Shown: in pieces, positions 2,133 through 33,466 of the stretch
How positions within the stretch are numbered: the stretch's first letter is position 1
Layout of the letters: each line of letters opens with the position of its first letter
NCBI GenBank assembly: GCA_001792115.1
Contig: MGFX01000001.1
Coordinates: 188,694-238,605 of the forward strand
Length of the DNA stretch: 49,912 nucleotides
Source: Candidatus Woesebacteria bacterium RBG_16_42_24
GTDB taxonomy: Bacteria; Patescibacteriota; Microgenomatia; UBA8517
Direction of reading: 5' to 3'
The notes under the pieces: generated by a model
The model's input: the letters and a program-made list of their open reading frames with translations, nothing else
Told to the model about the DNA's origin: nothing
Database searches by the model: none
Made by a program: the position numbers and the translations under genes

Positions 2133-3716
2133 ATGCCCGACCAAAACCCAAGTTTCCCGACGGAAGAAGCTCCAGCGGCCCCATATGGAGAGATGAAACA
2201 ACCCAAGGAGATTGCACCACAGCCAGAGCCCCTTCAAGGCCCGTCCCAATCCCAACCTTGGACTGGAACAGCCACGCCTCCCAAGGAAGCTGGGGGGGTA
2301 AGCCCCGAGACTCCGAGTCCGGCGCCAGTAAGTCCCGCCGGACCCGTTAGTCAACCGCCGGTACCAGTAATTGCTGAAGGACCAACCGTTACTACAACGG
2401 GGCGAAGATTTCCAATAAAAATTATTCTCGGAATACTTCTCGCCTTAATACTTGCGGCCCTGGCTTACTTCGGGTTCAAGTTTTTGAGGAGCAGAACGGG
2501 GGCTCCATTAACTACCAACACGATTACCTGGTGGGGCCTTTGGGAAGACTCGGGAGTTGTCGCGCCCCTAATCGAGGAGTACCAAACCCAGAACCCTACT
2601 ATAAAAATCGAGTACGTAAGACAATCCCCCAAAGATTACCGTGAACGGCTTGAGAGTTCCCTTTCCGGGGGCGAAGGCCCTGACATTTTTTTCTTCCACA
2701 ACAGCTGGGTGCCCATGTTTAGGGATAAGCTCGACAAAATTCCTGCAGAAGTAATGGGTGCCGGGGAATTTGCCCAGACATTTTACCCGATTGTCTCTTC
2801 GGACGTCACTAGCGGAACCGGGTTAACTGGAATTCCCTTGGGGTATGACGCGCTAACTCTTTACATAAACCAGGATATGTTTGACGCTGCTGGTAAGACA
2901 GCACCAGAAACGTGGGACGATTTAAGGAAAGTAGCAAGCGAGTTGACGATTAAAGACGAAGACGGCCTAATTTCGCAATCGGGCGTTGCTTTGGGGTTAA
3001 CATCAAACATAGACCATTGGCCGGAGATTTTGGCTTTAATGATGCTTCAAAACGGCGCAAATCTGGCCGAGCCGACGGGTGAGTTGGCCGAGAAAGCTCT
3101 TGAGTTTTATACCTTTTTTTACAAGACAGATAAAGTTTGGGATGAAAACCTTCCCAACTCGACGGTCGCCTTTGCTGCAGGAAAAGTAGCCATGATTTTT
3201 GGTCCTAGCTGGCGAGCCTTTGAGATAAAAGAGCAGAACCCGGAGCTAAGATTTAAGACAGTTGCCCCGCCCCACCTTCCTAAAGAAGATACTAATGAAC
3301 CAGACGTCGCATATGCGACATATTGGATACAAGGGGTCTGGGAGGGGAGTTCTCAAAAAGAAGCGGCTTGGAGTTTTCTTAAATTCATGAGTCAAAAGAC
3401 AAGTTTGGAGAAGCTTTTCGCAAACGCCAGTAAAACCAGGCTTTTTGGTGAGCCATACCCGAGGGTGGATATGACCGAACTTCTTAATACGCACCCAATG
3501 CTTGGAGCAATAATTACCCAAGCCCCTAATGCGACCAGTTGGTATTTAGCTAGTCGAACTTTCGATGGACCGACGGGAATAAATTCACAAATAAATAAAT
3601 ATTTTGAGGATGCGGTGAATGCAGTTAATGAAGGAACGAGCGCCGAAGGTGCGCTTGCGACAACCGCGGAGGGAGTTGCCCAAATTCTTGCCCAATTCGG
3701 AATTTCTTCTCCATGA
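2133..3716 (+). CDS. Extracellular solute-binding protein family 1 (sugar-type) with Pro-rich N-terminus and TM anchor
   Basis: ITWWGLWE, GPDIFFFHNSW, GIPLGYDALTLYIN, TWDDL and FAAGKVAMIFGPSW motifs; start moved to ATG 2133. Confidence 0.88.
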   Translation: MPDQNPSFPTEEAPAAPYGEMKQPKEIAPQPEPLQGPSQSQPWTGTATPPKEAGGVSPETPSPAPVSPAGPVSQPPVPVIAEGPTVTTTGRRFPIKIILGILLALILAALAYFGFKFLRSRTGAPLTTNTITWWGLWEDSGVVAPLIEEYQTQNPTIKIEYVRQSPKDYRERLESSLSGGEGPDIFFFHNSWVPMFRDKLDKIPAEVMGAGEFAQTFYPIVSSDVTSGTGLTGIPLGYDALTLYINQDMFDAAGKTAPETWDDLRKVASELTIKDEDGLISQSGVALGLTSNIDHWPEILALMMLQNGANLAEPTGELAEKALEFYTFFYKTDKVWDENLPNSTVAFAAGKVAMIFGPSWRAFEIKEQNPELRFKTVAPPHLPKEDTNEPDVAYATYWIQGVWEGSSQKEAAWSFLKFMSQKTSLEKLFANASKTRLFGEPYPRVDMTELLNTHPMLGAIITQAPNATSWYLASRTFDGPTGINSQINKYFEDAVNAVNEGTSAEGALATTAEGVAQILAQFGISSP

Positions 3717-3954
3717 CATCCTCCCCGCCCTAAAGAGCGGGGGTATCCCTCCAAAGGAGGATGATATATCAGGTGAATAACCAACGCCCAGCGTTGTCAA
3801 TTCCTCCACGGATTGAAATCCGTGGTATCCTTGAAACTGTTATGACATTCTCCATGGACTAAGAGCCCACAGTTTCACTTTTGAAAGAGAATGACATATC
3901 AAGTTCAATTCCTCCGTGAGCTGAAAGCTCACGGTTTCCTTGAAATTGTTATGA
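3713..3954. mobile_element. Two tandem non-autonomous hairpin mini-elements (IS200/IS605-end or REP-like) bounded by ATGA
   Basis: ATGA at 3713, 3842 and 3951 bound units of 125 and 105 bp that share TCAATTCCTCC-stem-GGTWTCCTTGAAAYTGTT; the stems covary. Confidence 0.65.
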
Positions 3955-4808
3955 GGCAAGAGACTAAAAGAGATTTTACACTCTATTACCACGACATTTT
4001 TGAATACCCGCTAACGGACGAGGAGGTTACTGTCTGGCAGCCTGGCAAAAAACTTGGGGGAGAATTGAAAAAACGAGTTGAGACTGAGAAAAAGGGAGGG
4101 TATTCATTTTTAAAAGGTAAAGGGAGACTCGTGGAGGAGAGGCGGGAAAGAGAGAGCATCAGCAAAAGAAAAATTGAAATGGCAAAAAGGGGTGTTGGGT
4201 TTATCTCGACAATTCCCACGGTTAAGATGGTCGCCCTTACAGGGGCCCTGGCAATGAGTAATGCCAAGGTGGATTCCGATATAGACATTTTCATTATTTG
4301 TAAGGGGGGAACACTTTGGGCGACGAGGATGTTTACGATTTTTCTACTGGATATTTTTGGAATTCCCAGAAACGCTGGAGGCAAGGTCGATAAAGATAAA
4401 CTCTGCTTGAATATGTGGTTGGATGAGCGCGATTTAATCTGGGGCAGGACAGATAGAAATTTTTATACAGCTCACGAAATCGCCCAGATTATTCCTCTTG
4501 TAAACAAAAGAGGGACCTACGAGAGGTTTATCTTTGTTAATAGGTGGATTAAGGATTATTGGCCCAATGCAGTCAAGATACTAAGTGAAGAAGATACTAA
4601 GATACTTGTGGGGAAGAGCAAAAAAAATCACTTAATATCTAAGTATCTTAGTATCCTAGTATCTTTGCTATTCGAGCCGATTGCCTTTCGGTTGCAGTAT
4701 TTCTATATGAAGTCGAAGATCACCCGTGAGGTCGTAACTCCCACCCGGGCAATTTTTCATCCCCGAGACTGGGGAAAAATCGTGATGAAACGACTAACCC
4801 AGGTTTAG
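3951..4808 (+). CDS. Nucleotidyltransferase-fold (Pol beta-like) protein
   Basis: VALTGALA...SDIDIFII motif (G-x...D-x-D); the upstream 60 nt of the tracked ORF are repeat sequence, so the start is placed at 3951. Confidence 0.72.
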   Translation: MRQETKRDFTLYYHDIFEYPLTDEEVTVWQPGKKLGGELKKRVETEKKGGYSFLKGKGRLVEERRERESISKRKIEMAKRGVGFISTIPTVKMVALTGALAMSNAKVDSDIDIFIICKGGTLWATRMFTIFLLDIFGIPRNAGGKVDKDKLCLNMWLDERDLIWGRTDRNFYTAHEIAQIIPLVNKRGTYERFIFVNRWIKDYWPNAVKILSEEDTKILVGKSKKNHLISKYLSILVSLLFEPIAFRLQYFYMKSKITREVVTPTRAIFHPRDWGKIVMKRLTQV

Positions 4809-8556: not shown

Positions 8557-8653
8557 CCCCGTCACAAAGGCTGACGGGGCAAACCCCCACACCATCTTGC
8601 CTCTCGCCTTTTTGGTACTATTCGTACACGGCTCGAGGTGCGATTGGGTGGGG
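8557..8653 (-). other. Structured 5' region of the M23 gene (candidate cis-regulatory RNA/repeat)
   Basis: 8-bp stem 8557-8579 four nt from the ATG, plus a long irregular hairpin 8584-8653 whose arm recurs at 48095-48134. Confidence 0.45.
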
Positions 8654-8654
8654 T

Positions 8655-8682
8655 AAATAAAAAATCCCGACTGAGTCGGGAT
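8655..8682 (-). terminator. Intrinsic terminator downstream of tRNA-Cys and the hypothetical gene
   Basis: ATCCCGAC-TCA-GTCGGGAT followed by TTTTTATTT on the minus strand. Confidence 0.75.
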
Positions 8683-10307: not shown

Positions 10308-10367
10308 TTAAAAGTTCGAGCTTCGGCTTGTCAAGCTAACGCCTTTTTGTTAAACTTTCCCACACTC

Positions 10368-11306
10368 ATGAGGAAGATAAGAACGATAATCTTAATCCTT
10401 TTAGGATTTGGAATTTTGACCGGCGCTGGATTGGCTCTATTGGGTTATCTTAGAAGCGGAAATGCGGGGCTTCTCGTTGAGTCAATACCTTCCTCTTCAG
10501 TTTATATCGCCGGCGAACAGGTAGGCCGTACTCCGTATGAGGCAAATCTCGATCCGGGTGAAGTAGTTGTGAAGTTGATCCCCGACGCAACCGATCGGGC
10601 ATTAGCCCCATTTGAGACAAAGGTAACATTGAGTTCTGGAATAAAAACCAATATCAGAAGGGAATTTGGGGAGACGGAAGAAACCTCTGTCGGCGAGATT
10701 GTTTCTTTTGAGAAAATTGGAGGTAAAGAGGTGAGCATTTCGGTAGTAACAACTCCAAATTCAGCCCAAATATCAGTCGATGGAACCGTCCGAGGTTTTG
10801 CCCCTTATAAAACCACCTCTATTACCCCAGGAGAGCATTCGTTGGTTATTTCTTCCCAGGGATATATCGATAGAACGATTACAGTTAAAGCGACAATTGG
10901 ATACAGATTAACGATTGTTGTTAAGCTTAAACCCAGTGAGGAGGCAGAGCCTCCTGAAGAAATAGAAGGGGAGGCGGTTGAAAAGAAGGTAATGGTTGAA
11001 ATATTATCCACTCCGACCGGGTTTCTGAGGGTTAGGGAAGCAGCCTCAACCGCGGCTAAAGAATTGACACAAGTAAAGCCGGGCCAGAGATTTCCATTTG
11101 TTGAAGAAGATACCGAGAATAACTGGTTTAAAATTGAATACCTGCCTGCGCAGGCAGGCGAAGAAGGAAAAGAAGGTTGGGTAACCGGCCAATATGCTAA
11201 AAAGGTTGAAGTTGAGCCGACAAAGGCGGCAAGTCCGTCAGCTACCCTCACCCCAACCAAAAAGCCTACGCCAACCCCGACACTAGTCCCTTCAGTTACT
11301 CCTTAG
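10368..11306 (+). CDS. Secreted/anchored PEGA-domain plus SH3b-domain protein with Thr-Pro tail
   Basis: N-terminal TM, two PEGA-like repeats (VYIAGEQVGRTPY; ISVDGTVRGFAPY), TGFLRVRE...WFKIEY...EGWV SH3b motif. Confidence 0.82.
   Translation: MRKIRTIILILLGFGILTGAGLALLGYLRSGNAGLLVESIPSSSVYIAGEQVGRTPYEANLDPGEVVVKLIPDATDRALAPFETKVTLSSGIKTNIRREFGETEETSVGEIVSFEKIGGKEVSISVVTTPNSAQISVDGTVRGFAPYKTTSITPGEHSLVISSQGYIDRTITVKATIGYRLTIVVKLKPSEEAEPPEEIEGEAVEKKVMVEILSTPTGFLRVREAASTAAKELTQVKPGQRFPFVEEDTENNWFKIEYLPAQAGEEGKEGWVTGQYAKKVEVEPTKAASPSATLTPTKKPTPTPTLVPSVTP
11141..11158. repeat. 18-bp perfect palindrome in frame inside the SH3b domain
   Basis: CCTGCCTGCGCAGGCAGG encodes LPAQAG. Confidence 0.85.
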
Positions 11307-23008: not shown

Positions 23009-23131
23009 AGCTCTTTCGTCCTTTTGGACTCTTCAGTAAGGGCACACACCCTTAAAGAACGTGTGGAATGCATTTCATCTCGTCGGCAAGAAGATGAAAG
23101 AGGCCGGCTCCACACGGGCCGTTGGGCAAGA

Positions 23132-23587
23132 TCAGGTACGATGGAGGGCGCCGAAATCCCGCATGGTGGTGTCCCAAAACGCCTTGTTCTCCGCGAAGGC
23201 TCGAAGAATTGCCTTGTTGGAGATTACGAACAGGACTTCTCCACCATCGACTACCGGCATGTGCCGGATGTCCTTCTCCGCCATGAGTTGGAGTACCTCG
23301 GCCACGATCGAGTCGGGGATCTTAGTGTGCACCTCCCGGGTCATGACTTCGGTGATGGGCGTTCGCGCGGCACTTCGTCCGACCCGCTCACCCTTCCGGG
23401 CGTAGTCGCGCTCGGTGTAGATACCCAGAACTTGCTTGTCCTCAACAACGAGAACCGAGCCGATGTCGTGGTCGGCCATGGTGTCAAGCGCATCCAAGAC
23501 CATTGCCCGGGAATCTACGACAACCGGCGTAATCGGACCCAGCTCCTCGATCAGGTCCTTGACCCGAAACGGTGGTCTGTAATCCAT
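23132..23587 (-). CDS. Tandem CBS-domain protein (GC-rich)
   Basis: IGSVLVV, GIYTERDYARK, IRHMPVVD; AGGAGGAG SD before ATG 23587. Confidence 0.88.
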   Translation of the reverse strand: MDYRPPFRVKDLIEELGPITPVVVDSRAMVLDALDTMADHDIGSVLVVEDKQVLGIYTERDYARKGERVGRSAARTPITEVMTREVHTKIPDSIVAEVLQLMAEKDIRHMPVVDGGEVLFVISNKAILRAFAENKAFWDTTMRDFGALHRT

Positions 23588-23773
23588 CGCCACTCCTCCT
23601 TTTGCCGACAAGGTGCGATGCGTGCGCTAAGCAAATTCTAGCGTGCATCTCGTGTGGGTATTATACATTAAAAGAAATGGAATTTTTGTTAGAATTGGAC
23701 GCATATGGGCGAAAGGGTTGTGGAAGAAAAAAGATTAAACAAGGAGCATAAAAGTTTTTTACTTGAACTTTTA

Positions 23774-24091
23774 TTATAAAACCGCCAAAAGTGTATTGGT
23801 GGCAAATTCACCAATAGTTAATCCAACTTCATTGGCTTTTTCTTCTAATCTCACCTCTTCTTCTTTGGTTAATCCAACAGATATTTTTCGGTTTGTGTTA
23901 ACAAGTACCTCCCCCCTCCACTGAAAATACCCCAATCTTAAGTTGGCGTCTACGAAACCCCGGACACTGCTATGACCTATCGGGTAATCCATAATTGACT
24001 CGAGCTCCCCTCTTGAAAGCCCACCCGAGGCCAATTTGCTGCTAATATACTCATAGAGAACTATTTGGCTTCCGTTCTCGATCTCGTTCAT
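23774..24091 (-). CDS. Hypothetical DNA-binding protein (possible wHTH plus ribbon-helix-helix)
   Basis: C-terminal ISVGLTKEEEVRLEEKANEVGLTIGEF has a CopG-like pattern. Confidence 0.55.
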   Translation of the reverse strand: MNEIENGSQIVLYEYISSKLASGGLSRGELESIMDYPIGHSSVRGFVDANLRLGYFQWRGEVLVNTNRKISVGLTKEEEVRLEEKANEVGLTIGEFATNTLLAVL

Positions 24092-24423
24092 TATTCTGTC
24101 CTCACCCCCTTTCCCTTAATAAGATATTTCCTTATCGACCCACAAATAAGCTCTGAAGGTAGGAGTCCTGTCTTAAGAACAATTCTTTTTAGAATCTTTT
24201 GTTCTTCGGGATTTAGAAAGATCTTTAATTGACCGTAATTAAACGATAGTTTTTGGTCTATCCATTTAATGTCTCCAGACTTGAGTCCAGTTTCAATAAG
24301 GTCGCCCAGGGTTTTATTTGGGGAGATTTTGAGATTCCGCTTTGATATGAATTCAAAACTAGTTAGCCCATCTAAAAATATCTTTCGATTTAATTGGTTT
24401 CTTAAATTCGAAAAGATATTCAT
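24091..24423 (-). CDS. Hypothetical DNA-binding protein (possible wHTH plus ribbon-helix-helix)
   Basis: C-terminal LKIFLNPEEQKILKRIVLKTGLLPSELI has a CopG-like pattern; TAATG overlap with the next gene. Confidence 0.55.
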   Translation of the reverse strand: MNIFSNLRNQLNRKIFLDGLTSFEFISKRNLKISPNKTLGDLIETGLKSGDIKWIDQKLSFNYGQLKIFLNPEEQKILKRIVLKTGLLPSELICGSIRKYLIKGKGVRTE

Positions 24424-24547
24424 TTAATAGGATGGTACCGGTTATACTCATATGTTGATATAACACGATGGTGATAGTAATTAGCCTTTATTTGACTCTC
24501 TCCGAATAGGAAAGTTGAAAAAAACACTTGACGAAACTTAAAATTAA

Positions 24548-24563
24548 TGACAATATCTAGTCA
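24548..24563. promoter_or_regulatory. NrdR-box-like palindrome over the nrdR promoter
   Basis: TGACAATATCTAGTCA; core CAATATCTAG fits CwAtATaTwG; TTGACG at 24528. Confidence 0.6.
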
Positions 24564-25021
24564 TGTATTGCCCATTTTGCAATAGTACTCAAGTTGCTGT
24601 CGTTAACTCCAGGGCTACAAAGAAAGACTCGCAAATTTGGAGAAGGAGAAAGTGCCTTATCTGCAATGAGGTTTTTACCACATACGAAAAGATAGATTTA
24701 TCACACTTAATAATAATTAAGAAATCAGGGAGAAAAGAGAGATTTATTAGGGCAAAACTCTATGCTGGAATTTACGGCTCAACAATTGATAAGAAAAACG
24801 CAGACAAAGGAGAAATGAGTGAGCTCGCTGAAGAAGTTACTAATAAAGTAGAGCAGGATATAGTTGCCCTCAAAAGAAAAAAAATTCAATCAGTTGAAAT
24901 TACAGAAATGGTTTTAAAAATTTTAGGGAAGAGAGCCCCCGATGCACTTTTGAGATTTTTAGCCTACCGAGAGGGGGAAAATAAGAAGAGGTTAGGTAAT
25001 TTACTTGATAAATACTTCTAG
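24563..25021 (+). CDS. nrdR: Transcriptional repressor NrdR
   Basis: CPFC...NSR...RRRKCLIC..FTTYE zinc ribbon followed by ATP-cone (IIKKSGRKERF). Confidence 0.92.
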   Translation: MYCPFCNSTQVAVVNSRATKKDSQIWRRRKCLICNEVFTTYEKIDLSHLIIIKKSGRKERFIRAKLYAGIYGSTIDKKNADKGEMSELAEEVTNKVEQDIVALKRKKIQSVEITEMVLKILGKRAPDALLRFLAYREGENKKRLGNLLDKYF

Positions 25022-25056: not shown

Positions 25057-27987
25057 GTGGTAAAGAAAAAAATTGAGGACAAGAAATTTAATAAAGAGCA
25101 AATTGAGGCAATTAAGTATGGAAATGGTCCACTTCTTATTATTGCAGGGGCGGGGACGGGCAAAACCACAGTTATCACCGAGAGAATTAAATACCTCATT
25201 CTTTCCAAGAAAACCAAACCCGAAGAAGTTCTCGCTTTAACCTTTACAGAAAAAGCAGCTAAAGAAATGGAGGAAAGAGTGGATGTGGCAATGCCTTATG
25301 GTTATACACAAATGTGGATAAGTACCTTCCACTCCTTTTGCGATCGGGTGCTAAGGCGGGAGGCGCTCCACATTGGCCTTGACCCCAAATATCACCTGGC
25401 GACCGAGGCAGAGACGGTTCAGTTTATTAGAAATAATCTTTTTAAATTTGATCTCGAATACTTTAGACCCTTAGGCAATCCCACGAAGTTTGTTGGAGGA
25501 ATGTTGCAACACTTTTCAAGGCTTCAGGACGAAGATGTGACACCCAATCAATATATTGATTGGGTGAACTTAAAACCCAAAACTCAAAACTCAAAAGTTT
25601 CGCAAGAAGAGAAGACAGAACTTAAAAAATGGAAAGAACTAGCCCGAGCATACAAGACCTACGACGAACTAAAAACAAAGGAGGGTGTGATGGATTTTGG
25701 GGACCTGATAGTTAAAGCCCTGAAACTTTTTAAAAGTAGGCCAAATATTTTGGGACAGTATCAGAAACAATTTAAGTATGTTTTGGTCGATGAATTCCAG
25801 GACACTAACTACGCGCAAAACGAATTGGCAATTTTACTTGCAGGGAAAGGTAACCTGCCTGCCGGCAGGCAAGGAAATATTACTGTCTGTGGGGACGATG
25901 ACCAGTCAATATATAGATTCCGTGGCGCCGCAGTTTCAAACATTATTCAATTTAGAAAGAATTTTCCAAAATCAAAGATTGTTGTTCTTACCAAGAATTA
26001 TCGATCCACACAAGAGATTTTGGATAGGGCATATCAGCTTATTCAACATAATAATCCGGATAGACTCGAGGCGGTCGAAAAAATAGACAAGAAGTTAGTA
26101 TCCCAAGTTGAAAAAGAGGGCAAAGAAATAAGTTTTATTCATGCGGATAGGGTAGAGAATGAAGCGGATGTGGTTGCCAAAGAAATTAAAAAACTCAAAG
26201 AAGATGGGGGCTACGAGTGGAAAGATTTCGCAATTTTGGTAAGGGCCAATAATCATGCGGAACCTTTCGGCAGAGCTCTCGCGCGGCACGCAGTTCCGTA
26301 CCAATTTCTTGGGCCAGGGAGACTTTTTAAGCAATCCGAAGTGGTCGACCTTATTTCTTATCTCAGGGTTCTTTATAACCTGGAAGATTCTGTTTCATTT
26401 TATAGGCTACTAGCAATTGATTATTTTGATATTAACGCACGCGATCTTGCGACAATCGGAAATAGCTCAAGAAAATTAAATAAAACTTTTTTCGAGGTAT
26501 GCGAGAATATCGACAATCTTTTTGTATCGAAAGAGACAAAAGAAAAAGTCAAAAAGATTTTAGAAATAATTGGAAGGCACTTAAAACTTGTTAGACGCGA
26601 AACAGCGGGGCAGCTCCTTTATTATTTTCTCTCCGACACGGGACTTATGCAAAAAATGCTTTCGCCCGACTCCGCCGAGGCGGAAAAAAAAGCGACAAAT
26701 ATTTCCAAATTTTTCGACAAACTGAAAACCTATGAGGTGGACCACGAGGACGCGACCGTTCCTGCGGTAGTTGATTGGCTGGAATTATCTTCCGAGCTAG
26801 GGGAGTCACCCTTGGCGGCAGATGTCGATTGGGTTAATGTAAATGCGGTTAACATTCTGACTGCTCACTCCGCAAAAGGCTTAGAATTTCCGGTCGTATT
26901 TTTAGTGAACTTGGTTGGCCAAAGATTTCCAACAATTGAAAGAAGGGAACAAATTCCAATCCCAGACGCACTCATAAAGGAGGTTCTGCCGGTCGGCGAT
27001 TACCATTTGGAGGAAGAAAGGCGGCTTTTTTATGTGGGGATGACGAGAGCTCGGGATATTCTTGTCTTTAGTGCGGCCGATTATTACGGGGAGGGTAAAA
27101 GAGAAAAAAGGCTGTCCCCTTTTATTTTTGAGTCGCTTGGAGATTCGGCTGTTTCAGCCGAACAAACACCCGAAAGCGGTCAACAGTTAAGCTTTCTGGA
27201 TTACCGACCGATTGCCGCCGAATTAACGAATCAACGAATTAACAAATCACGATTACATATCGACTACTTGTCCTACTCCCAAATCGAAACCTTTAGGATT
27301 TGTCCCTTACATTACAAATTAAAATATATTTACAAAATTCCCACTCCACCTTCTTCCTCACAAAGCTTTGGGAACAGTTTCCATGCGACAATGAAAGCTT
27401 TTTACGAGGCCTTAGTGAGAAAAGAAAAACCTTCGGAGAAACTAATGTATAGGGTTCTAAAGGAAAACTGGATAAGCGAGGGTTATCTAAATGCTAGACA
27501 CGAGGAGGGGTCGTTTGAAAAAGCCAAAAGATTTTTAAAATATTATTTGAAAAATACTTTTGACCCGAAAATTTCACCCATTTCTATGGAGCAGCCTTTT
27601 GTTGTTCGGCTCGACGGCCTTCGGGTCGGTGGAAAGATGGATAGGGTGGATGTGCATAAAGATGTGCTAGAGATAATCGACTACAAAACCGGTGCAAATC
27701 CGCTCCCCCAAAAAGAAGCAGATAAGGATTTGCAACTTTCCATTTACGCCCTTGCGGCAACCTCTATCCCGGAATTTCCTTTTGCCAGGGTTCCGGAAAA
27801 GGTGAAACTCTCGCTATATTATTTTGACACTCCGCAAATTGTTTCGACAACTAGGACGAAAGAGCAATTGAAAGAAGCAATAAAAATTATCGAGGATTAT
27901 AAAAGGCAAATTGAACACTCGGACTTTAGATGTTCACGCGGATTCCTTTGCGAAAACTGCGAATACTCATTTTTGTGTAGGACCTGA
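25057..27987 (+). CDS. UvrD/Rep-family helicase fused to a C-terminal PD-(D/E)XK nuclease with four Cys
   Basis: AGAGTGKT, DEFQD, GDDDQSIY, HSAKGLEF, EERRLFYVGMTRA; nuclease GKMDRVD...IIDYKTG, QLSIY; CPLHY...CSRGFLCENCEYSFLC. Confidence 0.92.
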   Translation: MVKKKIEDKKFNKEQIEAIKYGNGPLLIIAGAGTGKTTVITERIKYLILSKKTKPEEVLALTFTEKAAKEMEERVDVAMPYGYTQMWISTFHSFCDRVLRREALHIGLDPKYHLATEAETVQFIRNNLFKFDLEYFRPLGNPTKFVGGMLQHFSRLQDEDVTPNQYIDWVNLKPKTQNSKVSQEEKTELKKWKELARAYKTYDELKTKEGVMDFGDLIVKALKLFKSRPNILGQYQKQFKYVLVDEFQDTNYAQNELAILLAGKGNLPAGRQGNITVCGDDDQSIYRFRGAAVSNIIQFRKNFPKSKIVVLTKNYRSTQEILDRAYQLIQHNNPDRLEAVEKIDKKLVSQVEKEGKEISFIHADRVENEADVVAKEIKKLKEDGGYEWKDFAILVRANNHAEPFGRALARHAVPYQFLGPGRLFKQSEVVDLISYLRVLYNLEDSVSFYRLLAIDYFDINARDLATIGNSSRKLNKTFFEVCENIDNLFVSKETKEKVKKILEIIGRHLKLVRRETAGQLLYYFLSDTGLMQKMLSPDSAEAEKKATNISKFFDKLKTYEVDHEDATVPAVVDWLELSSELGESPLAADVDWVNVNAVNILTAHSAKGLEFPVVFLVNLVGQRFPTIERREQIPIPDALIKEVLPVGDYHLEEERRLFYVGMTRARDILVFSAADYYGEGKREKRLSPFIFESLGDSAVSAEQTPESGQQLSFLDYRPIAAELTNQRINKSRLHIDYLSYSQIETFRICPLHYKLKYIYKIPTPPSSSQSFGNSFHATMKAFYEALVRKEKPSEKLMYRVLKENWISEGYLNARHEEGSFEKAKRFLKYYLKNTFDPKISPISMEQPFVVRLDGLRVGGKMDRVDVHKDVLEIIDYKTGANPLPQKEADKDLQLSIYALAATSIPEFPFARVPEKVKLSLYYFDTPQIVSTTRTKEQLKEAIKIIEDYKRQIEHSDFRCSRGFLCENCEYSFLCRT
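25854..25874. repeat. 21-bp palindromic element in frame in the helicase
   Basis: CCTGCCTGCCGGCAGGCAAGG encodes N-LPAGRQ-G. Confidence 0.85.
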
Positions 27988-28030: not shown

Positions 28031-28270
28031 ATGACAAGCGTATCCATTACTGACCTGAAGACAAAACCAGCCTCGGTTATTTTAGCTTCGGAGGATTATC
28101 CTGTTGCAATTAAAAGTAGAGAGAAGACCAAAGCCTACCTTGTAGGCAGAAGCCTTTTTGAGAAGATGATTGCGTACATTGAGGATGTTGAGGACGTTAA
28201 AGCTGTTGAGAAAGCAGATTTAAGCAAGGCTACAGATTTTGAAGAATTTGCCAAAGAGCTGGGGATATGA
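28031..28270 (+). CDS. Phd/YefM-family antitoxin
   Basis: VSITDLKTKPASVI...PVAIKSREKTKAYLV N-terminus, acidic C-terminus, ATGA overlap with the toxin. Confidence 0.8.
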   Translation: MTSVSITDLKTKPASVILASEDYPVAIKSREKTKAYLVGRSLFEKMIAYIEDVEDVKAVEKADLSKATDFEEFAKELGI

Positions 28271-28539
28271 ATCTTAAGATTATTCCTCAGGCGAAAAAGC
28301 AAATCAGAAAACTTTCTAAAACTACCCAAATTATAGTTGGCAACAAGATAAGACAACTGGGAACAGGAAACTTTAGCAATTCCAAAAAACTGGCTTCCTA
28401 TAAGGATGTTTTTAGGATTAGATTGGGTGATTATCGGATTGTTTATATCCTTAGATCAGATAGTGTTTATATAATCCTAGTTACACACAGAAGAGAAGCT
28501 TACAAAAAGCTTGCTATTTATTACAAACATTTTAAATAG
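28267..28539 (+). CDS. relE: RelE/ParE-family toxin
   Basis: AKKQIRKL, FRIRLGDYRIVY, HRREAY. Confidence 0.88.
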   Translation: MNLKIIPQAKKQIRKLSKTTQIIVGNKIRQLGTGNFSNSKKLASYKDVFRIRLGDYRIVYILRSDSVYIILVTHRREAYKKLAIYYKHFK

Positions 28540-31606: not shown

Positions 31607-33466
31607 TCAAAAGTTTATATCGTCGAACTCTCCCAAACTTTTTAATAATCTATCTGTTCCTGTTCCTTGAAGAAGAGTTTCCGGAATATCAATTATAAAC
31701 CGACTAGGGGGATTTGAAATCTTTTCCCCGAAGTAAAGTCTACGGGTGGCGTAGGAAAGATACAAAAGATTTTTGGCCCGGGTTATTCCTACATAAGCCA
31801 AACGCCTTTCTTCTTCGAGTTGGCTTGAGTCCCAAAGAGAACGGGAATGGGGGAAAAGCCCTTCTTCCATTCCGACGATGAATACAACGGGAAATTCGAG
31901 ACCCTTGGCCGCATGTAGAGTCATCAAGGTGACCGCGTCACGTCGTGATACGTGATTCGTATTTTGTGATTTGAATTGTTCCGTCTCGACAAGTGCAACA
32001 TTTTCCAGAAATTCGTTGATATTTGGAAACTCCGTTGCGACCGAGCGGAGTTCTTTAATGTTTTCGAGTCTCGCCAAGTTTTCCTCGGTTTCTTTTTGAT
32101 AAAGGTCCAAGTACCCAGTTTTCTCTAAAACTATGTCCAATAAATCGAGGGTTGTGAAGCTTTCCAGGTTTTCTATTTCTTCTTTCAGGCTTTTAAACTT
32201 CTCGATCCTTCTCACTCCCAATTTTTCAATTCTTCTTTTGGCTACAGTGTCTTTAGGGTTAATCAGGAGTCTTAGAAAAGAAAGAACGTCTTTAATTTCT
32301 TTGCGGCCGTAAAATCTGACGCCACCAACCAAAAGGTAAGGGATTCCAGAGTGAAGCAGCGCTTCCTCCAAAACACGAGATTGGGCATTAGTTCTATAAA
32401 GAACAGCAATATCTTGAAAAGTGATTGGTGATTGGCGACTGGTGATTAGTGATTGAATTTCGCCCACGACAAAACTTGCTTCATCCAAGCCATTACGAGC
32501 TGTATAGAGTTTTATTTTTTCTCCTGCACCTTTTAACGTCCAAAGTTTTAGAATCGGGTGGGTTTTGTTTTTGGAAATAACCGAATTTGCTGCACTTAGA
32601 ATGTTTTGGGTGGAGCGGTAATTTTGCTCAAGATTAATAATTTTAATGTCGGGGAAGTCTCGAACTAAATAGTTTATATTTCGGTAGTCCGCTCCTCGCC
32701 AGGAATAAATTGATTGTGAAGCATCCCCCACGGCAGTTATATTTTTTCCTCTCCCAACAAGTAATTTTGTCAGAGCATATTGGATTTTGTTTGTGTCCTG
32801 CCATTCGTCGACGAAAATATGAGTTAGCTTTTCCTGCCATTTATTAAGTACTTCGGGAACTTCCTTGAAAAGCTCGACAGTCTTAATAAGAAGGTCGTCA
32901 AAGTCCAGAGCCCCCACTTCTTTTAGGGCTTTTTCGTAAGCGACGTAGACCTTAAAGACCGTTTCACCCCAATCACCGGGGGCAAGTTCTGCGTATTGGG
33001 TCGGTGAAAGCATTTGATTTTTGGCATCAGAGATTTCCCCTAAAATTGCAGCGGGATTATATGAGTCGGTGGACAGGTTAAATTCGCTAAGAATCTGTTT
33101 TACCATCTCCTTTGAGTCATCCTCGTCATAGATTAAAAAACTTGGGTAAATTCCGATATGCTTCCCGTCGATTCTTAAAATTTTTGCGCAGAAAGAGTGG
33201 AAGGTTCCAGAATAGGGCGGGGTAGAGCCGGTCAGGGACGCAATTCTTTCCTTCATTTCTCCGGAAGCTTTATTGGTAAACGTTAACAGAAGCGCATTTT
33301 CTGGTTTAAGAGTCTTTTCGGCAATAAAATATGCAACCCGGTGGGTTAAAACTTTAGTTTTGCCGCTACCCGCTCCCGCCAAGACTAGAAGTGGTCCCCC
33401 GATATAAGTTACGGCTTTAACCTGCTCTTTATTTAAGCTGGAAAGTAGCTTGTTTCCCTTTTGCAT
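31607..33466 (-). CDS. pcrA: ATP-dependent DNA helicase PcrA/UvrD
   Basis: AGAGSGKT, DEWQD, GDASQSIYSWRGA, LEQNYRST, YRTNAQSR, HAAKGLEF, EERRLAYVGITRA. Confidence 0.96.
   Translation of the reverse strand: MQKGNKLLSSLNKEQVKAVTYIGGPLLVLAGAGSGKTKVLTHRVAYFIAEKTLKPENALLLTFTNKASGEMKERIASLTGSTPPYSGTFHSFCAKILRIDGKHIGIYPSFLIYDEDDSKEMVKQILSEFNLSTDSYNPAAILGEISDAKNQMLSPTQYAELAPGDWGETVFKVYVAYEKALKEVGALDFDDLLIKTVELFKEVPEVLNKWQEKLTHIFVDEWQDTNKIQYALTKLLVGRGKNITAVGDASQSIYSWRGADYRNINYLVRDFPDIKIINLEQNYRSTQNILSAANSVISKNKTHPILKLWTLKGAGEKIKLYTARNGLDEASFVVGEIQSLITSRQSPITFQDIAVLYRTNAQSRVLEEALLHSGIPYLLVGGVRFYGRKEIKDVLSFLRLLINPKDTVAKRRIEKLGVRRIEKFKSLKEEIENLESFTTLDLLDIVLEKTGYLDLYQKETEENLARLENIKELRSVATEFPNINEFLENVALVETEQFKSQNTNHVSRRDAVTLMTLHAAKGLEFPVVFIVGMEEGLFPHSRSLWDSSQLEEERRLAYVGITRAKNLLYLSYATRRLYFGEKISNPPSRFIIDIPETLLQGTGTDRLLKSLGEFDDINF

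Follow-up and report, generated by a model that had tools for sequence, protein, structure and literature searches.

A helicase gene of Candidatus Woesebacteria bacterium RBG_16_42_24 contains a 21-bp palindromic unit immediately before the sequence encoding helicase motif III. The gene lies in a 49,912-nucleotide stretch of this genome (contig MGFX01000001.1, positions 188,694 to 238,605; hereafter the window). The unit is a true insertion, it is a member of a widespread family of mini-palindromes and it is fixed in one Woesebacteria species. Scans of genome, viral and metagenome sequences show that this family recurs at hundreds of unrelated sites. The features discussed here are listed in Table 1.

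Table 1. Palindromic units, host genes and paralogue in the window (coordinates are window positions; a slash marks the centre of a palindrome).
Feature	Position	Strand	Remarks
21-bp palindromic unit CCTGCCTGCCGGCAGGCAAGG	25854..25874		+ strand reading (N)LPAGRQ(G); exact indel relative to syntenic contig L002
16-bp perfect palindrome core TGCCTGCC/GGCAGGCA	25856..25871		Within the 21-bp unit
Host gene, 976-aa superfamily 1 (SF1) UvrD/PcrA-type helicase with C-terminal PD-(D/E)XK nuclease and Cys cluster	25057..27987	+	Pfam; PcrA/UvrD/AdnB structures; model
PcrA/UvrD paralogue without insert	31607..33466	-	Reads LLVGRGKNITAVGD; internal comparison
18-bp perfect palindrome CCTGCCTGC/GCAGGCAGG	11141..11158		20-mer minus central CG; reads LPAQAG in SH3b loop
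Host of second copy, PEGA and SH3_3 domain protein	10347..11306	+	PF08308, PF08239

The DNA-repair helicase has the conserved domains PF00580 (UvrD-helicase), PF13361 (UvrD_C) and PF12705 (PD-(D/E)XK). Its assignment to the SF1 UvrD/PcrA group is based on the motifs DEFQD and GDDDQSIY and on a match to PcrA (1PJR; E-value: 4e-73). Motif II (DEFQD) is at residues 245-249, the insert at 266-272 and motif III (GDDDQ) at 279-283. The reading frame continues across the insert as ...DEFQDTNYAQNELAILLAGKGN-LPAGRQ-GNITVCGDDDQSIY..., that is, LLAGKGN-LPAGRQ-GNITVCGDDDQ. The first-pass annotation, made from the window sequence alone, described a 21-bp palindromic insert. The inserted sequence is exact at 25854-25874, but it is not a perfect 21-bp palindrome, as the perfect core is 16 bp. 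The outer CC and GG also pair once the A at 25872 is left unpaired, and the unit is equivalent to a common 20-mer, CCTGCCTGCCGGCAGGCAGG or (CCTG)2CC/GG(CAGG)2, with this one extra A. Shuffled versions of the window are expected to contain 0.08 matches to the 16-mer with up to three mismatches (8 of 100 shuffles had a match). The window has four perfect palindromes of at least 16 bp, compared to approximately 0.8 expected for random sequence by our arithmetic, and two of the four have the 9-nt arm CCTGCCTGC in common. As RNA in its context, the 16-bp core forms a hairpin of -11.9 kcal/mol that is no better than those of shuffled sequences (z = -0.96).

The annotation also proposed a precise in-frame insertion, using the paralogue in the window as its reference. 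Removal of the 21 bp does produce ...GGT AAA AAT ATT..., encoding GKGKNIT, as the comparison with LLVGRGKNITAVGD had suggested. The proposal is supported, with the orthologues providing far stronger evidence than the paralogue. A set of 120 database proteins includes the window's own protein, and the insert is absent from all 119 of the others (66-82% identity). These orthologues read LLAGKxKNITVCGDDDQ or near variants at the insert site. By the names of its homologues, the helicase belongs to Candidatus Woesebacteria/Microgenomates, a lineage of the candidate phyla radiation. The alignment for empty sites that the annotation had called for also identified an exact one in L002, a syntenic contig of a relative with 75-89% DNA identity to the window. 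The window sequence is GGG AAA GGT AA[21 bp]A AAT ATT and the L002 sequence is GGA AAA GCC AA/A AAT ATC. The annotation would have given up the insertion had orthologues routinely carried unrelated 7-aa loops at this position and had the palindrome been confined to this gene. The orthologues have no such routine loops, and the palindrome is present at at least 121 other loci.

The insert is present in a JGI contig that is 99.97% identical to the window (L001). The same holds for all seven other members of the protein cluster whose sequence extends over the site; these come from NCBI and ENA assemblies, and the full-length proteins among them differ at 0-5 residues. As the JGI contig and all seven cluster members carry it, the insert has reached fixation in this species and is not a product of faulty assembly. 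When indels of at least 9 bp were compared between the window and its relatives L002 and L127, only the helicase insert and the 18-bp unit at 11141-11158 were GC-rich palindromes.

Two other variations were observed in helicase genes of this group. In one same-species assembly, the helicase is called as two open reading frames (ORFs), P0242 (605 aa) and P0251 (352 aa), on a single 25,246-bp ENA contig. The N-terminal ORF ends past the insert region, and the split may reflect either a frameshift or a fault in the assembly of that sample. Six orthologues of approximately 1325-1350 aa (P0003, P0018, P0019, P0023, P0085 and P0113) contain an intein (PF14890/PF01079). It is located directly after motif III (GDDDQ/CLP...), at a position that aligns with approximately 25905 in the window; this is 10 residues C-terminal to the site of the palindromic insert. 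No intein is present in the window gene.

A structural comparison with PcrA, also suggested by the annotation, is consistent with insertion into a loop. The alignment to 1PJR opens a 7-residue gap between A240 and E241, exactly at the insert. In PcrA this is the loop from the helix after DEYQD to the strand leading into GDADQ with Q254. In an AlphaFold model of the helicase, a helix (252-262) is followed by a loop (263-274) and a strand (275-280), and the predicted local distance difference test (pLDDT) score is below 50 exactly at residues 266-271 (NLPAGR). The model predicts disorder for the loop that holds the insert, and the insert appears to mark a permissive surface loop next to motif III. 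A Microgenomates orthologue, P0083 (L128 1968-4988), has a different GC-rich palindromic insert in the same loop (GGCCCTCGAGGGCC, read AGSASGPRGPQARGGNITV), which means that palindromic DNA has been accepted by this loop more than once.

The family was followed outside the window using both the arms of the unit and the exact 21-mer. A scan of 185,579 species genomes for CCTGCCTGC-N(0-4)-GCAGGCAGG recovered at least 120 stretches. Among the matches listed, the centre of the unit is CG in at least 79, absent in at least 14, C in 11, T in 8, G in 8, A in 4, CT in 1 and CA in 1. As the centre is CG at 79 listed sites, the perfect 20-mer CCTGCCTGCCGGCAGGCAGG is the dominant form among the recovered matches. 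Approximately 0.5 copies of this 20-mer would be expected by uniform chance in 596 Gb (an estimate), compared to the at least 79 sites found. The 20-mer is predicted to fold into an 8-bp stem with a 4-nt loop (-13.9 kcal/mol). A single metagenome scan with the helicase's own exact 21-mer recovered at least 119 stretches with at least 121 sites. These are different loci, mostly in DNA of 30-50% GC, and fewer than one would be expected by chance (an estimate). Several of them are on contigs of 0.74-1.02 Mb.

The hosts of the 20-mer were counted by hand among the matches listed. They are the candidate phyla radiation (CPR; 23 loci), Bacteroidota (21 loci), Planctomycetota and the wider Planctomycetes-Verrucomicrobia-Chlamydiae group (7 loci), metagenome-assembled genomes labelled Gammaproteobacteria (7 loci), Omnitrophota (6 loci), Delta-type lineages (5 loci), Nitrospirota (2 loci) and Chloroflexi (1 locus), with 4 loci unplaced. 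The Bacteroidota carriers include the cultured Winogradskyella echinorum, Flagellimonas yonaguniensis, Longitalea luteola and Flavivirga sp. None of these listed matches is from Firmicutes, Actinobacteria, Cyanobacteria or Archaea. In viral contigs, the 20-mer is present at 44 sites (reversed control: 0) and the 18-mer at 29 sites (reversed control: 2). The exact 20-mer is absent from the cultured-phage records of INPHARED and from the plasmids of PLSDB. One viral contig (L162, IMGVR_UViG_3300025106_000007) has a head-to-tail array of ten 21-bp variant units, CCATGCCTACCGGCAGGCAGG, at its end (3915-4124), and several further single variants within the same 4 kb.

A further window palindrome, TCCGCCAGCTGGCGGA (42472-42487, 16 bp), was considered as a family member and rejected, as it is only approximately 2.3-fold enriched over its reversed control (55 vs 24 viral stretches). 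It lies in a small ORF (42415..42765, - strand) and is read TPPAGGS in a Pro/Thr-rich stretch. This 16-mer recurred three times in unrelated loci, and its family status is doubtful.

The second family member in the window was found by scanning for perfect palindromes. Its site in the window is GAA TAC [CTG CCT GCG CAG GCA GGC] GAA GAA, and the close relative L127 has a clean 18-bp empty site (ATT GAA TAC/GAA GAA GGA). Among 120 orthologues, the SH3 loop is either empty (KIEY-EEGKE-GWV) or filled in several ways, with LPAQAG or with the decayed forms QPAQAG, QTAQAG, MPSVAG and QSKEAG. L124 has a unit with the arm variant CTTGCCTGCGCAAGCAGG at a second site in this loop, just before GWV, and both sites are filled in L126. 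In L125 the copies are nested: a newer unit interrupts an older one precisely at its midpoint (CCTGCCAGC-[CTTGCCTGCGCAAGCAGG]-GCAGACAGG). In a neighbour-joining tree built without the SH3 loop, filled alleles are scattered among empty ones. The two sites, the nested copy and the patchy presence in the tree point to repeated gain or loss. Five diverged filled alleles have no synonymous change in C CTG CCT GCG CAG GCA GG, whereas flanking synonymous sites vary.

Most of the 20-mers among the matches listed are intergenic or in the loops of tRNA genes. Two copies are in tRNA variable loops (L130, ~8590-8660, and L153, 2239-2330), where they read ...CCACGAGG[20]TCGCCGGTTCGAATCCGGC (AGG/20/TC). Rfam still scores L153 2239-2330 as a complete tRNA (50 bits). 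Others are in or beside D-loops, both in L160 (~495-560; GGTAGCTCAGTTGGTA[20]GAGC, GGTA/20/GAGC) and in tRNA fragments of L058 (~2105-2160) and L027 (~4020-4075), which read ...TAGA[20]GC.... The tRNA copies are exactly 20 nt and have no target duplication, and neither of the window sites has one. The units were inserted without target duplication. ARAGORN does not call the tRNA genes or fragments that carry the 20-mer (L153, L130, L160, L058, L027 and L047), and excision of the 20-mer restored a callable tRNA only in L047 (~3617-3680).

Among the 21-mer matches listed, flanking positions are near background except for -1 (A 58%) and +1 (T 57%, C 29%). Direct repeats of 6-14 bp flank 13% of these sites compared to 0.7% of controls. 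These repeats are mostly found in 7-bp periodic tandem repeats and so do not represent a general target duplication, which is also rejected because 87% of the listed sites have no duplication at all. Many 21-mers in very AT-rich contigs are embedded in such 7-bp periodic repeats (TTGAGAA, TTCAAAA, ATATCAA), which are in phase on both sides of the unit. Examples are L167/L202, L227 (two copies), L187, L191, L204, L254, L256 and L266, and some of these composites recur within a contig or sample. Some copies are centred in larger palindromes, as in L156 (TGTGTCGCCC[20]GGGCGGCACA) and the nested L125.

Two other ideas about the sites were discarded. The units do not appear to be parts of a larger element, as flanks of 250 bp per side have no similarity to each other except for tRNA fragments and local duplicates. 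A role as terminators does not agree with the intergenic copies, which lie between genes in every orientation (11 divergent vs 12 convergent). The gene families that adjoin the palindromes at the 120 genome loci are Rrf2 regulators and ParB, not transposases. In two of these loci, which come from distant phyla (Parcubacteria and Planctomycetales), no more than 50 bp separate the 20-mer from one end of a parB gene, either its start or its end (L003 2446-2465 and L076 7461-7480), and in L087 a ParB-like ORF is 1.4 kb from the 20-mer. This proximity may be chance or may hint at a link to partition sites.

The length of the unit is related to its position relative to genes. Frame sorting was assessed at loci with a GC content of at most 0.5, counting sites spanned by an open frame of at least 150 aa. 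Such a frame is present at 12 of 60 sites for the 20-mer, 8 of 11 for the 18-mer (p = 0.001 vs the 20-mer) and 65 of 105 for the 21-mer (p = 1.6e-7 vs the 20-mer). The frame-shifting 20-mer is largely confined to non-coding DNA, while the frame-keeping 18- and 21-mers are found in genes. The 21-mer is in an open frame of at least 150 aa at 77 of 120 metagenome sites among the matches listed. In this listed set, 52 of the 77 coding copies read LPAGRQ in one orientation or the other (33% expected), and the most common reading is NLPAGRQG, as in the helicase. The cysteine-free reading is favoured in genes. Host proteins of the 21-mer include RecG, PheT, AlaRS, HisRS, S-adenosylhomocysteine hydrolase, a Wzy-type ligase and a thioredoxin-like protein. 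Those of the 20- and 18-mers include ribosomal protein S6, FtsK, topoisomerase I (TopA), a PMT-type glycosyltransferase and FtsW. RecG, PheT, AlaRS, HisRS, S6, FtsK, TopA and FtsW are housekeeping proteins that are unrelated to one another. That genes are enriched in the 18- and 21-bp forms, and the DNA outside them in the 20-bp form, argues that the unit is translated. The unit is too short for an intein, and no Rfam family covers it.

The helicase insert is probably a non-autonomous palindromic mini-element that was copied from existing copies and is tolerated as a disordered loop before motif III. The proposed model is as follows. A family of very short GC-rich palindromic insertion units would be built on (CCTG)2CC/GG(CAGG)2. 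One copy would have been inserted into the helicase gene of an ancestor of this Woesebacteria species, once its lineage had split from relatives of 80% identity or less. The ribosome would read through the unit, lengthening the loop between the post-motif-II helix and the motif-III strand by 7 residues, most likely with little effect on the enzyme. The units are presumably handled as hairpins by an enzyme with a preference for A/T junctions, and a few cases hint that the loops or centres of other hairpins may serve as targets. Selection would then retain only frame-preserving, cysteine-free readings in genes. The best argument for copying is that the asymmetric variant with the extra A, as well as a second arm variant, occurs unchanged at many unrelated sites. 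A broader proposal is made tentatively: that hairpin-only palindromes of 18-21 bp, the same across phyla and viruses and inserted exactly and with no target duplication into spacers, tRNA loops and protein loops by hairpin-specific machinery, constitute an undescribed class of mobile DNA.

Several points weigh against this mini-element model. No species was seen to be polymorphic for the presence of a unit, and active movement of the units is therefore not demonstrated. No transposase or HUH gene is present in the 50-kb window, and no gene family is common to the 120 genome loci (clustered ORFs of at least 100 aa; maximum of 5 loci per family). An identical 18-21-bp sequence across phyla is hard to square with ordinary transposon evolution. 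The unchanged synonymous sites of the SH3 unit could reflect selection on a functional DNA or RNA hairpin as opposed to recent insertion. The copy density is two family members per 50 kb, a figure for per-genome copy number that is drawn from the window only. The helicase model behind the predicted loop is only moderate overall (mean pLDDT 69.6).

Some of these points would fit a functional nucleic-acid site, either a site bound by a conserved DNA- or RNA-binding protein or an RNA hairpin under selection, with the coding copies located where the host protein can accommodate them. This explanation draws on the identity of the sequence in distant phyla, the constancy of the 18-mer in the five SH3 alleles with variable flanks, the 2 of 120 genome loci within 50 bp of parB, and the resemblance of some copies to bidirectional terminators with T-run and A-run flanks (L061, L112). 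It is nevertheless unlikely, given the clean 18-, 20- and 21-bp indels in unrelated genes, tRNA loops and spacers, the lack of any preferred orientation among intergenic copies and the existence of decayed copies (QPAQAG, QTAQAG, MPSVAG). A functional site leaves the insertion itself unexplained; it can coexist with mobility but not replace it. Alternatively, each unit could be synthesised afresh where DNA breaks, if a repair or reverse-transcription activity extended both 3' ends with a fixed templated tail (…CCTGCCTGCC). Such tails would pair through self-complementary tips (CCGG or GC) and be filled in, producing constant arms with a variable centre. The counts among the matches listed have this pattern, there is no target duplication, and no flanking element or neighbouring gene is shared. 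One conserved template would presumably also give constant arms across phyla. However, the asymmetric 21-mer with the extra A is unchanged at at least 121 loci, which fits the copying of an existing variant better, and the second arm variant CTTGCCTGCGCAAGCAGG is also recurrent, at sites that differ between lineages. As we also know of no enzyme of this kind, synthesis at breaks is regarded as quite improbable.

Explanations confined to the helicase gene fare worse. Selection of the LPAGRQ loop for helicase function, for example for contact with a partner, would agree with the fixation of the insert in the species, its closeness to motif III and the different GC-rich insert in the same loop of P0083. 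It would not account for the same peptide arising from the same 21 nt in RecG, tRNA synthetases, S-adenosylhomocysteine hydrolase and other proteins, nor for the 43 of 120 listed 21-mer copies that are outside long open frames. The predicted disorder of the loop and the 119 orthologues without the insert also argue against it, and such an adaptation is very unlikely. The least credible explanation is a one-off local mutation, by template switching or hairpin-primed duplication, or else an artefact of assembly or sequencing. Template switching can make palindromes, and a 26-bp palindrome that is not an indel is found 290 bp upstream in the same gene. A template-switch (quasi-palindrome) mutation was rejected for the units themselves, as the empty sites GGTAA/AAATATT and GAATAC/GAAGAA contain neither arm. 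The identical 21-mer at at least 121 other loci, the insert in independent JGI, NCBI and ENA assemblies, the 20-mer in cultured-isolate genomes and long-read chromosomes, and the decayed versions in orthologues, which indicate a real evolutionary history, all speak against a local event or an error. Protein-level adaptation, one-off local mutation and artefact are each contradicted by several results.

In behaviour, the closest analogue of the mini-element family is the Rickettsia palindromic element (RPE). RPEs have in-frame copies in 19 conserved genes and further copies in the genes for tmRNA and RNase P RNA, are 105-146 bp long and are restricted to Rickettsia (Ogata et al. 2000, reviewed in PMC2229807). 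The likeness lies in palindromic repeats that lack any coding capacity, are in frame in conserved genes, read through and apparently tolerated, and that also occur in RNA genes and spacers. The present units are in frame in the helicase, the SH3 protein, RecG, aminoacyl-tRNA synthetases, S6, FtsK and TopA. They differ in being 18-21-bp perfect or near-perfect palindromes with the same sequence in several phyla, and they have no sequence similarity to RPEs.

Repetitive extragenic palindromes (REPs), which also form bacterial interspersed mosaic elements (BIMEs) and are associated with RAYT (TnpA-REP) transposases, are described as GC-rich hairpin-forming palindromes of 20-40 bp that are mostly intergenic, thought to be non-autonomous and handled as single-stranded hairpins (PMC3733652, PMC8266576). 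The 20-mer is likewise a GC-rich hairpin-forming palindrome in the 20-40 bp range. REPs are extragenic, species-specific and tagged, whereas the present units are often in frame in genes and common to several phyla. The REP end tags were rejected as a feature of the units: GTAG was found at 2/79, 2/42 and 2/121 sites and CGTC at 4/79, 1/42 and 2/121, with approximately 3% expected by chance. A RAYT or Y1 transposase gene was not seen in the 50-kb window or as a common family near the 120 loci. Further analogues are the GC clusters of yeast mitochondria and the PstI palindromes of Neurospora mitochondria. These GC-rich palindromes are dispersed through AT-rich genomes and occur in spacers, RNA genes and in-frame coding positions, and how they are mobilised is not known. 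They are organellar, longer and lineage-specific, with cores of ~18-50 bp and flanks, whereas the present units are found in bacteria of many phyla, free-living or episymbiotic.

YPAL/RU-2 and other bacterial miniature inverted-repeat transposable elements (MITEs) measure 100-200 bp, consist of an internal segment bounded by terminal inverted repeats and regularly duplicate their target (PMC2229807). Some of the present copies are similarly flanked by direct repeats of 6-14 bp, and some are at centres of dyad symmetry, as has been reported of YPAL targets. In contrast to MITEs, the whole unit is the palindrome, there is no internal segment and most sites have no duplication. The family does not qualify as RPE, REP or MITE and resembles these elements only broadly. 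A full-text literature search found no relevant paper with the 18-, 20- or 10-mer or with the peptides LPAGRQ, LPAQAG or PACRQAG, and keyword searches returned only papers on RPEs, REPs and MITEs. Small palindromic repeats that colonise genes are already known, and there is a real chance that the mechanism here is new.

If the units are mobile, they would be far smaller than any other mobile element of which we are aware. Their sharing across phyla would then call for a new mechanism, such as an enzyme that inserts hairpins specifically, or the repair of breaks from a template. Many small insertions in the conserved proteins and tRNA genes of uncultured bacteria that have lacked an explanation would be accounted for by such units, whose presence would also mark recent genome change in CPR lineages. 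Essential proteins of CPR bacteria would steadily acquire short peptide insertions (LPAGRQG, LPAQAG) from this family. Insertions of 6-7 residues of this type in housekeeping proteins would be element-derived and not lineage-specific functional motifs. For annotation, it follows from the ARAGORN results that tRNA finders can overlook genes carrying the 20-mer.

Three other observations were made in and around the helicase gene. The 26-bp perfect palindrome mentioned above, CACCCAATCAATAT/ATATTGATTGGGTG (25541-25566), is read TPNQYIDWV and has a chance expectation of ~7e-4 per 50 kb. L002 is merely diverged at this position (SPQDYLAYT), and one possible origin of the palindrome is template-switch conversion of a quasi-palindrome. 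Directly 3' of the helicase is a PhdYeFM antitoxin/ParE toxin pair (28031-28539), which is present in the window and L001 and is not found in the syntenic L002. On the other side, the interval between RmuC and the helicase (23010-25021) is ~2 kb longer in the window than in L002, where the helicase directly follows RmuC. The extra DNA contains a CBS-domain gene, two small unknown ORFs and NrdR.

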